A stretch of DNA of 64,000 nucleotides from a virus. The position numbers were made by a program, and so were the translations under genes. Under the pieces are notes generated by a model that was given only the letters and a program-made list of their open reading frames with translations, was not told where the DNA came from and made no database searches. Positions within the stretch are counted from its first letter, which is position 1; each line of letters begins with the position of its first letter. Location: positions 2,458 through 66,457 of IMG/VR virus record IMGVR_UViG_3300031251_000016, one strand, 5' to 3'. Shown one piece after another: positions 56,588-58,388 of this stretch.

Positions 56588-58388
56588 GGCTTACTACAAC
56601 GAGCATGACCCTCACGCTGCGGCGTGGCTTCGCAACCTGATCGCGCAAGGACTGATCGCGGATGGAGACGTCGACGAAAGAAGCATCGAAGACGTCCGCC
56701 CCGACGACTTGCGAGACTACGCCCAGTGCCACTTCTTTGCCGGCGTCGGAGTTTGGTCTTACGCACTCCGACTTGCCGGCTGGCCCGACGACCGGCCTGT
56801 CTGGACCGGCTCGTGTCCGTGCCAACCTTTCAGCGCGGCAGGCAAAAGAGGCGGGGCTTCTGACGAGCGGCACCTATGGCCTGCGTTCTTCCATCTCATC
56901 GAGCAGTGCAGACCTAGAACTGTTTTTGGCGAGCAGGTTGCGAGCAAGGATGGGCTCGCTTGGCTCGACCTTGTTCACGCTGACTTGGAAGGAGCGGGCT
57001 ACGCCGTTGGGGCTCTCGATCTCTGCGCTGCGGGCGTCGGGGCGCCGCATATCCGACAGCGATTGTTCTTCGTGGCCGACGCCGATGGCGGGCTCTCCGG
57101 CGACCGAGGCTTACAACGAAGCGGGGAACAGCGACTACAGCCGCAAGACGGTGGCGCTAGCCTCCTGGCCGACGCCGAAAGCCTCGGACTGCCAGGGCGG
57201 CAGGACGACGGAGACGGCGGGCGGCGGCAACGCGCATCTGGATCGGGACGTGAGGTTGGCGAGCTGGGCGACGCCGGCAGCACGGGACGGCCGATTTGCG
57301 AACGCGAAGACCTACAAGGAGCGGGGCGGTGGGGTGAAGGGGGAGCAGTTGAACAACCAAGCCGTCCACTTAGCGGGTTGGGCGACGCCGAATGCCTCGG
57401 CGCCGGGAGGGACGCCGGAAGCAGCTTTGAAGCGCAAGGAGGGCCTTCCTTGCGGTCAGAGCGTGACGACGCTGGATCATCAAGTTCAGATGGTCGGCCC
57501 GGTCCGACTAACGGCTATTGGAATCTTGCTGACTGGATCTTCTGCACAGACGGAAAATGGCGGCCAGTTGAGTCCACGCATGTCCGCTTGGCTCCAAGGA
57601 TTGCCGCCGATTTGGGACGAGTGCGCGCCGACGAAGGAACAGATGAAACGGAGTTGATGAATGCCGCGCGTCTACGAGGTCAAACCAACCCCCGAAAAGT
57701 TTTGTCGTCACTGCGGCGTAGCACTGGGGCGGAAGCGCATGAACGGCCGCCTAGAGGACCGAGGGGTTTTCCTGCGGCGACAGTTTTGCGATCAAACGTG
57801 CATGGCGAAAGCCATGGAGAAAGAGACCTGCACGTCGGTCAGCCATTCCCGCATGAAGGCCAATCGCACGATGAAACCATCATGCGAAGCGTGCAACGCG
57901 ACGGGAAAGCTACACGTCCACCACAAGGACGAGAACCCGCTCAACAACGACCCGTCGAACTTGAAGACGTTGTGCGTCTCTTGCCACCGTCGCTCGCACT
58001 CGCCGAACTTCACGGCGACAGGGGAACAGCGAGCGCCTTGCGCTCATTGTGCGAAGCAATCTGTAAAGGTCGGTCTTTGCGCCACGCACCTGACGAGGCT
58101 CAGGCGCTTTGGCCATCCCTTAGCCAAGAAGCGAAAGATTGGATCGGCTTGGGTTTTGATGCTGCACGATGGGAACTTGTGGTTCCCTTTCCCCTCATAG
58201 ATGGGTCTGCCTTCCGAGTGGGACCAGGCGGCGCCAACTCGCGACCAAATGAAGGCATCTTCGAAGGCAAGTCCCGCGCGAAAATGCTCCGCGGCTACGG
58301 GAACTGCATCGTCGCGCCGCTCGCGGCGGAATTCATCGGCGCTTTCCTCGATTGGGAAACCGAAGGCTTGGGAGGGGTTATGAAATGA
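56580..58388 (+). CDS. DNA cytosine-C5 methyltransferase, alpha polypeptide (lacks motif IX; about 200-aa insertion)
   Basis: HFFAGVG, GSCPCQPFS, FGEQV, PHIRQRLFF, motif X GYGNCIV; GTG start at 56580. Confidence 0.88.
   Translation: MVKAYYNEHDPHAAAWLRNLIAQGLIADGDVDERSIEDVRPDDLRDYAQCHFFAGVGVWSYALRLAGWPDDRPVWTGSCPCQPFSAAGKRGGASDERHLWPAFFHLIEQCRPRTVFGEQVASKDGLAWLDLVHADLEGAGYAVGALDLCAAGVGAPHIRQRLFFVADADGGLSGDRGLQRSGEQRLQPQDGGASLLADAESLGLPGRQDDGDGGRRQRASGSGREVGELGDAGSTGRPICEREDLQGAGRWGEGGAVEQPSRPLSGLGDAECLGAGRDAGSSFEAQGGPSLRSERDDAGSSSSDGRPGPTNGYWNLADWIFCTDGKWRPVESTHVRLAPRIAADLGRVRADEGTDETELMNAARLRGQTNPRKVLSSLRRSTGAEAHERPPRGPRGFPAATVLRSNVHGESHGERDLHVGQPFPHEGQSHDETIMRSVQRDGKATRPPQGREPAQQRPVELEDVVRLLPPSLALAELHGDRGTASALRSLCEAICKGRSLRHAPDEAQALWPSLSQEAKDWIGLGFDAARWELVVPFPLIDGSAFRVGPGGANSRPNEGIFEGKSRAKMLRGYGNCIVAPLAAEFIGAFLDWETEGLGGVMK
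56662..57657 (+). CDS. Overprinted methyltransferase beta polypeptide (W(P/A)TP repeats plus motif IX)
   Basis: +1 frame inside alpha; four W(P/A)TP repeats; GQLSPRMSAWLQGLP resembles motif IX. Confidence 0.72.
   Translation: METSTKEASKTSAPTTCETTPSATSLPASEFGLTHSDLPAGPTTGLSGPARVRANLSARQAKEAGLLTSGTYGLRSSISSSSADLELFLASRLRARMGSLGSTLFTLTWKERATPLGLSISALRASGRRISDSDCSSWPTPMAGSPATEAYNEAGNSDYSRKTVALASWPTPKASDCQGGRTTETAGGGNAHLDRDVRLASWATPAARDGRFANAKTYKERGGGVKGEQLNNQAVHLAGWATPNASAPGGTPEAALKRKEGLPCGQSVTTLDHQVQMVGPVRLTAIGILLTGSSAQTENGGQLSPRMSAWLQGLPPIWDECAPTKEQMKRS
57661..58200 (+). CDS. HNH endonuclease nested out of frame in the methyltransferase
   Basis: GGAG RBS; CRHCG..FCDQTC; LHVHHKDENPLNNDPSNLKTLCVSCHRRSH. 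Confidence 0.85.
   Translation: MPRVYEVKPTPEKFCRHCGVALGRKRMNGRLEDRGVFLRRQFCDQTCMAKAMEKETCTSVSHSRMKANRTMKPSCEACNATGKLHVHHKDENPLNNDPSNLKTLCVSCHRRSHSPNFTATGEQRAPCAHCAKQSVKVGLCATHLTRLRRFGHPLAKKRKIGSAWVLMLHDGNLWFPFPS
58201..58383 (+). CDS. Displaced original C-terminus of the beta polypeptide
   Basis: [20 protein letters not shown] duplicates QGLPPIWDECAPTKEQMKRS; TAG-ATG coupling. Confidence 0.5.
   Translation: [60 protein letters not shown]

Follow-up and report, generated by a model that had tools for sequence, protein, structure and literature searches.

An HNH nuclease gene inside the two overlapping frames of a phage C5 methyltransferase gene, with a substitute end in one frame and an open path through the other

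How can a nuclease gene lie inside a stretch of DNA that already codes for two proteins in two overlapping frames, and leave both of them makeable? This question is raised by a cytosine-5 (C5) DNA methyltransferase locus in the virus record IMGVR_UViG_3300031251_000016 of IMG/VR, a sequence of 66,457 bases with direct terminal repeats. The part analyzed here, referred to as the window, comprises 64,000 nucleotides (nt; record positions 2,458 to 66,457, one strand), and all coordinates below are those of the window. The methyltransferase is encoded as two chains, alpha and beta, in overlapping frames, and both frames are entered by a cassette that carries an HNH nuclease gene. A first-pass annotation, made from the letters alone, had read this segment as a homing element that is tolerated by rebuilding one of the overlapping genes and by reading through the other. 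The boundaries of the cassette, the open alpha frame and a rebuilt beta end that is found family-wide support this view, and we consider it probable that the locus holds a mobile, homing-type HNH cassette in a two-frame methylase gene from which all three proteins can still be made.

The host gene lies in a long open frame (56412 to 58388) with zero stops. Alpha, the C5 methyltransferase chain, occupies 56580 to 58388 on the plus strand and has 602 amino acids (aa) counted from a putative GTG start at 56580; it was delimited with the list of open reading frames (ORFs), with its matches to PF00145 (E 6e-12, the sole Pfam match) and phrog_363 (E 1.5e-76), and with homologs that have or lack the insert. 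It carries, in this order, motifs I to VIII, a low-complexity linker, a CTDGKWRPVE hairpin, about 205 residues of insert, FPL, and motif X, whose YGN is encoded at 58296 to 58304. The alignment with homologs shows no loss of catalytic or motif X residues. Nested in the +1 frame of alpha is the beta chain (56662 to 57657, plus strand, 331 aa, from the ORF list and PHROG matches), which contains LTWK, four WPTP-type repeats and the motif-IX-like SAWLQGLPPIWD. Beta matches phrog_1008 and phrog_31772, both labelled 'DNA methyltransferase', and has 3986 database homologs at E ≤ 0.001; these relatives are mostly nameless or annotated as 'hypothetical protein'.

Beta is conserved over its full length, about 1 kb of alpha, in most related phage loci (L008 to L087). 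We sampled 80 viral loci by methylase motifs, 76 of which could be scored for frame openness. In most of the 76, the +1 (beta) frame is open over nearly the entire alpha gene and the third frame mostly over 45 to 200 codons; in most sampled loci, the beta frame ends with WLMGLPxEW, a few codons 5' of the alpha stop. In about 12 of the 76 rows the script took the downstream gene, hence the word 'most' in place of an exact count. Beta is nested and holds motif IX, and alpha holds the catalytic motifs and motif X, which is the layout of M.EcoHK31I. Judged by its sequence, the host is a two-polypeptide phage C5 methyltransferase gene of this layout, with motifs I to VIII and X assigned to alpha, and the recognition repeats and motif IX to beta. 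Between L091 and L171, which are otherwise near-identical, a 66-codon block of WPTP repeats differs, and this insertion or deletion keeps alpha and beta in frame.

The inserted cassette extends from 57576 to 58199 (plus strand), 624 nt in the place of 18 nt of the insert-free locus L010, which makes the gene longer by a net 606 nt (202 codons). On the left flank, 31 of 33 nt match L010 up to TCC at 57573 to 57575; on the right flank, identity resumes at GAT at 58200. At the protein level, the closest insert-free proteins (P0004, P0005, P0007, and P0009) read DGKWRPVE(S/P)xSFPL in the alignment, and an insert is found at the same site in P0001, P0002, P0003, P0006, P0008, P0010, P0014, and P0016. 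Both the L010 DNA and the protein alignment define the boundaries at the site proposed in the first-pass annotation. WRPVE of alpha is encoded at 57558 to 57572 and FPL at 58188 to 58196, and the segment between them (57573 to 58187), put at about 615 bp with alpha open in that annotation, measures exactly 615 nt and has zero alpha stops.

The beta frame of the window reads GGQLSP, then the cassette, and then 12 residues identical to beta of L010. The 5' part of the cassette supplies a substitute beta C-terminus with the stops TGA TGA (57595 to 57660, plus strand; QGLPPIWDECAPTKEQMKRS), which has a counterpart in 23 related loci. In the window, beta ends in WLQGLPPIWDECAPTKEQMKRS, followed by TGA at 57655 to 57657 and again at 57658 to 57660. 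A Shine-Dalgarno-like GGAG (57650 to 57653, plus strand) lies within the last beta codons, 7 nt before ATG 57661 of the HNH gene; the latter is in the beta frame (57661 to 58200, plus strand, 179 aa) and closes with TAG at 58198 to 58200. Abutting this TAG, ATG 58201 opens the displaced original beta end (58201 to 58383, plus strand), a 60-aa ORF left open in the beta frame, such that beta, HNH and the displaced beta end share one common frame. The DNA from 58201 to 58383 now serves alpha, where it reads IDGSAFRVG...KSRAKMLRGYGNCIVAPLAAEFI. Every element of the order first described, that is, a replacement end for beta, a ribosome-binding site with the HNH gene, and a TAG-ATG junction into the old end, can be read in the sequence.

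The 3' end of the cassette (58185 to 58199, plus strand) consists of recoded alpha codons for P-F-P-L-I that overlap the HNH C-terminus (PFPS and stop). The FPL codons are TTT CCC CTC in the window and TTC CCG TTG in L010; because all three (3/3) differ synonymously, they are part either of the cassette or of a conversion tract. Further downstream, 8 codons at 58231 to 58254 (NSRPNEGI in alpha, PTRDQMKA in beta) are absent from insert-free L010, P0004, P0005, P0007, and P0009. The beta reading PTRDQMKA resembles PTKEQMKR in the cassette tail, and the stretch may have come from gene conversion or may bear witness to the origin of the duplicate. A different insert is seen in P0090 (Brucella intermedia, 585 aa), 3' of FPLAHG rather than 5' of it, so that this gene family may harbor insertions of two kinds.

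The duplicated beta tail reveals how the duties of the original stretch are divided. In the window, the two 20-codon copies are identical at 12 of 20 positions as beta protein (manual count) and at 52% as DNA. They were compared by mean pairwise aa identity across 23 unique alpha/beta loci that bear the insert; no locus was excluded on account of a stop in alpha. The upstream copy, which belongs to the cassette, has an identity of 0.49 in the beta frame versus 0.24 in the alpha frame over 16 columns, and 0.315 versus 0.155 over the 10 columns outside the anchor; the downstream, native copy has 0.161 in beta versus 0.376 in alpha over 18 columns. For comparison, the single copy in 56 insert-free loci has 0.85 in beta and 0.76 in alpha. 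A stop interrupts the beta frame in 15 of the 23 downstream blocks, where the beta motif is still present in 3/23; the FPL-type motif of alpha is found upstream in 1/23 and downstream in 15/23. Because conservation of the upstream copy is confined to the beta frame and that of the downstream copy to the alpha frame, the cassette splits a dual-coding stretch into two single-duty copies. The rebuilt beta end, first noticed in this one phage, is a feature of the whole family as represented by the 23 related loci. Recoding of one copy would limit both its deletion by recombination between the repeats and the re-cutting of the site.

In short, we propose that the HNH cassette inserted just 5' of the motif-IX coding stretch of a two-polypeptide C5 methylase. 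In the empty allele, one DNA stretch encodes both FPL..RVG of alpha and RWLMGLP..W of beta. The 5' end of the cassette brings a recoded copy that serves the beta reading only and closes beta with a short basic tail and stops, and the native downstream copy is left to the alpha reading only. Alpha would be translated through the cassette, which would place about 205 extra residues after the CTDGKWRPVE hairpin and before FPL/motif X, and HNH, in the beta frame, would be translated by coupling to beta.

Translation of alpha through the cassette depends on a host frame without stops, and here relatives of the HNH gene are informative. We gathered them from viral contigs, metagenome contigs and phage records and kept the unique loci that reached 70 bits and 95 aligned residues, 78 in all. 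Across the HNH match, the -1 (host) frame is stop-free in 76/78 loci and the +1 (third) frame in 2/78; among the alpha/beta hosts alone, the host frame is open in 33/33. Host-frame openness spans a guanine-cytosine content of 0.35 to 0.69 in the 78 loci. In the exceptions, L103 (7 stops) and L228 (9 stops), the HNH gene stands free and is not enclosed by a host ORF, and these two loci form a natural control. When the codons of the window's HNH gene were shuffled, the -1 (alpha) frame stayed open in 0.001 of 2000 shuffles, and the median of this probability over loci is 0; the +1 frame of the window's gene contains 10 stops. Since the host frame is stop-free in nearly all loci and the third frame in hardly any, it is selection, not chance, that keeps alpha free of stops across the cassette. 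Homologs in which the alpha frame is often broken, which the first-pass annotation had named as a result that would speak against it, were not encountered.

What this selection preserves can be narrowed down further. The alpha chain was modeled with AlphaFold2 (AF2) on 52 sequences. Confidence is high at residues 1-170 and in the motif X helix, whereas the predicted local distance difference test (pLDDT) score falls below 50 in the linker (172-305) and at residues 342-351 and 381-455, which belong to the insert. Residues 460-535 (about 57958 to 58184), the alpha reading of the 3' half of HNH, are predicted as a confident helical bundle with pLDDT of 77-93. Protein-level selection on the alpha read-through was considered and rejected, as no such signal was found despite these predicted helices. 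Where the HNH frame has a conserved residue, identity of the wobble base is 0.532 for the N half versus 0.498 for the C half, with a bootstrap difference of -0.10 to +0.03, and alpha-frame identity (0.245 and 0.262 in the N and C halves) equals that of the third frame (0.266 and 0.263). The constraint supported on the read-through is a frame without stops, nothing more.

The open host frame also bears on two other explanations of the locus. According to one of them, the insert is removed by an unrecognised intron or intein, at the RNA or the protein level, and the loop is missing from mature alpha. The insert does have ends that resemble each other, and such a resemblance is discussed as a possible intron signature (PMC11855218, section 3.1) by the authors who described the ShiLan domain and the Pacc40 gp60 insertion, which are hidden out-of-frame HNH genes in actinobacteriophage DNA methylases (Arsenault, Gosselin, Gogarten 2025, Genes 16:178, PMC11855218). 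Against splicing, Rfam gave no intron family up to E=10 in 56300 to 58700, where a single chance small-RNA row was the only match, and among Pfam families at E ≤ 0.1, none of the Hint or intein type matched alpha. The alpha-frame end of the insert reads LVVP and then F, not HN and then C, S or T, which is not the end of an intein. These searches agree with the first-pass statements that intein motifs are lacking and that the element is neither intron nor intein. Moreover, a spliced intron would not need a stop-free host frame, yet almost all of the 78 loci have one, and a host frame kept open by selection is hard to reconcile with RNA splicing; beta and HNH, in turn, need the 5' part of the insert in the mRNA. 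We regard removal of the insert by splicing as very improbable. The other explanation, to which we give just as little weight, is that the insertion killed the methylase, and that the open alpha frame and the beta-like tail are functionless leftovers. It draws on the argument that orphan phage methylases are often dispensable (PMC11855218, section 4.1). However, the chance of an open frame is about 0.001 here and the openness recurs in diverged loci; the two copies are conserved frame-specifically; and the catalytic and motif X residues of alpha have been retained.

Association of the two chains was examined by structure prediction. The predicted alpha-beta complex of the window has a score of 0.88 (median of 3 runs) versus 0.00 for the best of 3 controls; in the benchmark, the mark of 0.88 was reached by 58/80 solved complexes and by 2/110 mismatched pairs. 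Across runs, at least 45% of contacts agree, and the pLDDT of the partner is at least 51. In the model, beta 294-328, the tail that the cassette supplies, touches alpha at 560-592 (motif X) and at 11-25. Because single-chain C5 methylases have been solved, this pass may reflect likeness to these single-chain enzymes.

If the host proteins are spared in this way, the next question is how the nuclease itself is made. A Met from which HNH can start is located 0-5 codons after the beta stop in 18/21 junctions (manual count); of the other 3/21, two have Val or Leu and one has none. Further junctions in a second set agree with the pattern of a Met near the stop. True fusions of beta and HNH occur in L173 and in P0143 (455 aa, PF01844). 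The substitute beta tail is short and rich in Lys and Arg, and because of this composition its codons are purine-rich, including the GGAG in the window. A promoter scan of 56000 to 58800 found no sigma-70-like site. Since the HNH ATG lies 3 nt past the beta stop, GGAG lies in the beta tail and no promoter-like site was seen, the most likely source of HNH is the methylase mRNA, with its translation coupled to that of beta. A broader reading, towards which we lean only slightly, is that the gene belongs to a large HNH family that has specialised, across phyla, on the motif-IX stretch of C5 methylases and carries a portable 'repair kit' that un-overlaps alpha and beta and provides termination-reinitiation. 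The new basic tail of beta would then double as the ribosome-binding region for the nuclease.

The product of the HNH gene is laid out as an N-terminal zinc ribbon, an HNH core and a C-terminal zinc ribbon, and in total it contains three modules that bind zinc. It matches PF01844 with 22.8 bits (E 1e-4), above the curated cut-off of 21.4, and PF13392 with 22.4 bits, below the cut-off of 24.8; in PHROG, it matches 18 HNH families, down to E 8e-10. In 20 sequences, C15, C18, C43, C47, C75, C78, H87, H88, N96, and N100 are invariant, as are C105, C108, H109, H113, C127, C130, C140, and H143, so that the catalytic His/Asn/His and the zinc-binding Cys pairs are conserved. The AF2 model of HNH has a mean pLDDT of 90, and the HNH gene of the cassette looks intact. 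A sequence search of solved structures with HNH returned a single chance row (E 0.98), and a single-sequence scan of genome contigs with HNH returned two weak partial loci only.

The distribution of the element points indirectly to mobility. HNH is present in 2/80 of the viral loci that were sampled by methylase motifs, and the hosts nearest to the window on the tree are without the HNH insert. The insertion site is constant, and the hosts include alpha/beta genes as well as single-chain genes from phages of Firmicutes. In Staphylococcus phage CUB-EPI_14, for example, a relative of HNH sits directly 5' of motif IX (RIRKLTEKECWRLQGF) of a single-chain C5 methylase, gp45 (L001 1342-3147, 601 aa), as a hidden 160-aa ORF (2501-2983) in the +1 frame, and the host frame is open in this AT-rich DNA. 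The same HNH family is also carried by the single-chain hosts L206 and L209, which, like L001, have no beta. Copies truncated at the N- or C-terminus are found at many loci. From this pattern, the cassette has presumably spread by homing into empty alleles. Short contigs from a second rhizosphere sample, which belongs to a separate study, are identical to the window across both junctions. Two contig joints across the insert were left unused, as they are single contigs with 85% likeness, one of them with a 24-letter side.

A further possibility is that the HNH gene is not, or is no longer, selfish, and has become a domesticated partner of the methylase, in which DNA recognition by beta aims the nuclease at, for instance, unmethylated host or rival-phage DNA. 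HNH always follows directly after beta in the beta frame, the beta-HNH fusions would suit such a partnership, and the arrangement is widespread and old. Homing genes, however, typically insert in the most conserved coding stretches, and this is where the present insertion lies. The sporadic distribution, the many truncated copies (L008, L002, and others) and the occurrence of the same HNH family in methylases that have no beta likewise speak against domestication, which we consider unlikely, if less remote than splicing or a dead methylase.

For the preferred reading, a mobile cassette with three proteins still makeable, the comparisons show how the cassette is built and bounded, that selection keeps the host frame open, and that the two copies divide their duty. 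Several points have to be set against this reading. Activity of the methylase with a 205-residue insert and a shortened beta is presumed, and splicing is excluded only by inference; a look through RNA runs found none that contains the stretch. The fold match of HNH is weak: at E ≤ 0.001, Foldseek found nothing similar to the HNH model, and the top rows from VIA are EcoKMcrA (Z 3.6, root-mean-square deviation 2.6, 56 residues aligned) and Gme HNH (Z 3.6, root-mean-square deviation 3.4, 60 aligned), although most of the 28 VIA rows are HNH nucleases. The truncated HNH copies (L008, L002, and many loci with partial matches) and the beta-HNH fusions fit long residence or domestication as well. On the host tree, 10 HNH rows need 8 changes, of which well-supported branches force only 2, and 29/500 shuffles are as low; the pattern left out three HNH-bearing rows (L173, L186, and L232). 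The tree was rejected as a count of gains, being too poorly resolved. Lastly, no empty-site allele of this phage was found; the second sample showed the occupied allele only.

Several known systems share part of this arrangement. Inteins and HNH genes borne by introns also place a selfish nuclease in the most conserved part of a host gene while the function of that gene is spared. The window differs in that no splicing machinery is detectable, and function would be spared by the design of the frames, not by excision. As for the host, M.EcoHK31I was reportedly first described by Lee, Kam and Shaw in 1995. It is a two-polypeptide C5 methyltransferase whose chains must associate and are both needed, and its beta, as in the window, lies wholly inside alpha in another frame (PMC2836561). 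Unlike that enzyme, which is without a nuclease insert, the window encodes a beta that comes close to alpha in length and has the repeat-rich recognition region as well; the middle of its alpha is a low-confidence linker, and association of the chains is predicted from the model only. In the 'genes in pieces' ribonucleotide reductase of phage Aeh1, mobE in nrdA is likewise a free-standing homing endonuclease gene in a coding region without intron or intein, and new tails rescue the function of the host (Crona et al. 2011, PMC3045599). There, nrdA is split into two polypeptides, whereas in the window alpha is read through and beta receives a new end in place of the old one.

The closest parallel is the ShiLan element, which had been named in the first-pass annotation and proved to be a real precedent. 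Found in methylases of mycobacteriophages, it, too, is a 202-codon insertion in a phage methylase gene with a host frame free of stops, an HNH gene in another frame, no intron or intein signature and a sporadic distribution, and the first residues of the insert resemble those just past the insertion site (PMC11855218). The differences are as follows. ShiLan gp65 is an N6/N4 methylase (PF01555), whereas the host in the window is a C5 methylase (PF00145) that already encoded two proteins, so that three frames are in use and the duplicate is a substitute beta tail. The HNH of the window is not a close relative, with 0 Mycobacterium among the 51 phage records matched. It has GGAG and a start right after the beta stop, in contrast to the ShiLan HNH, for which no ribosome-binding site was seen and leaderless initiation was proposed (PMC11855218). 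Taken together, the window element works like ShiLan and is not homologous to it. The words cytosine, coupling and Staphylococcus are absent from the main text of PMC11855218, supplements aside, and that article alone was found in a literature search on out-of-frame HNH homing endonucleases in methyltransferases. To this precedent, the present locus adds two points: the copies share out the work according to frame, and the nuclease is likely to be coupled to beta.

The cassette would represent a third route, beside introns and inteins, by which a nuclease gene can reside inside an essential-looking coding stretch, and the case is the hardest one, since two proteins were already encoded by the target DNA. 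Coupling to beta offers a concrete and testable route of translation for hidden nucleases; if true, it would answer the question left open in the ShiLan paper of how hidden HNH genes are translated, and the locus would be a natural case of a selfish element that resolves the constraint of overlapping genes by duplication and division of labor. Reading the duplicate as a substitute tail would also explain the terminal duplication of the published ShiLan element. Annotation pipelines call such loci one 'DNA cytosine methyltransferase' of 500-660 aa, as in CUB-EPI_14 gp45, and miss both beta and the nuclease.

In the window, the methylase frame is flanked on the 5' side by a DnaA-C-like gene (55940-56587) and on the 3' side by an MT-A70 adenine methylase gene (58668-59363). 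The first-pass annotation had also counted three out-of-frame nuclease-type genes in this genome. One further such gene was found, and the third is unconfirmed. The one found is a 240-aa ORF at 55-777 (plus strand), which matches HNH_3 (PF13392, E 1e-13) and lies in another frame inside the terminase ORF at 2-2239; it sits in the first intein of the large terminase, and the terminase frame reads through it. The terminase ORF itself contains Intein_splicing, Terminase_6N/6C and a second Hint_2 at residues 545-590. Elsewhere in the window, a 1505-aa ORF (8427-12944, plus strand) combines Hint and LAGLIDADG, that is, an in-frame intein, with phage portal, NUDIX and Mu F-like domains.

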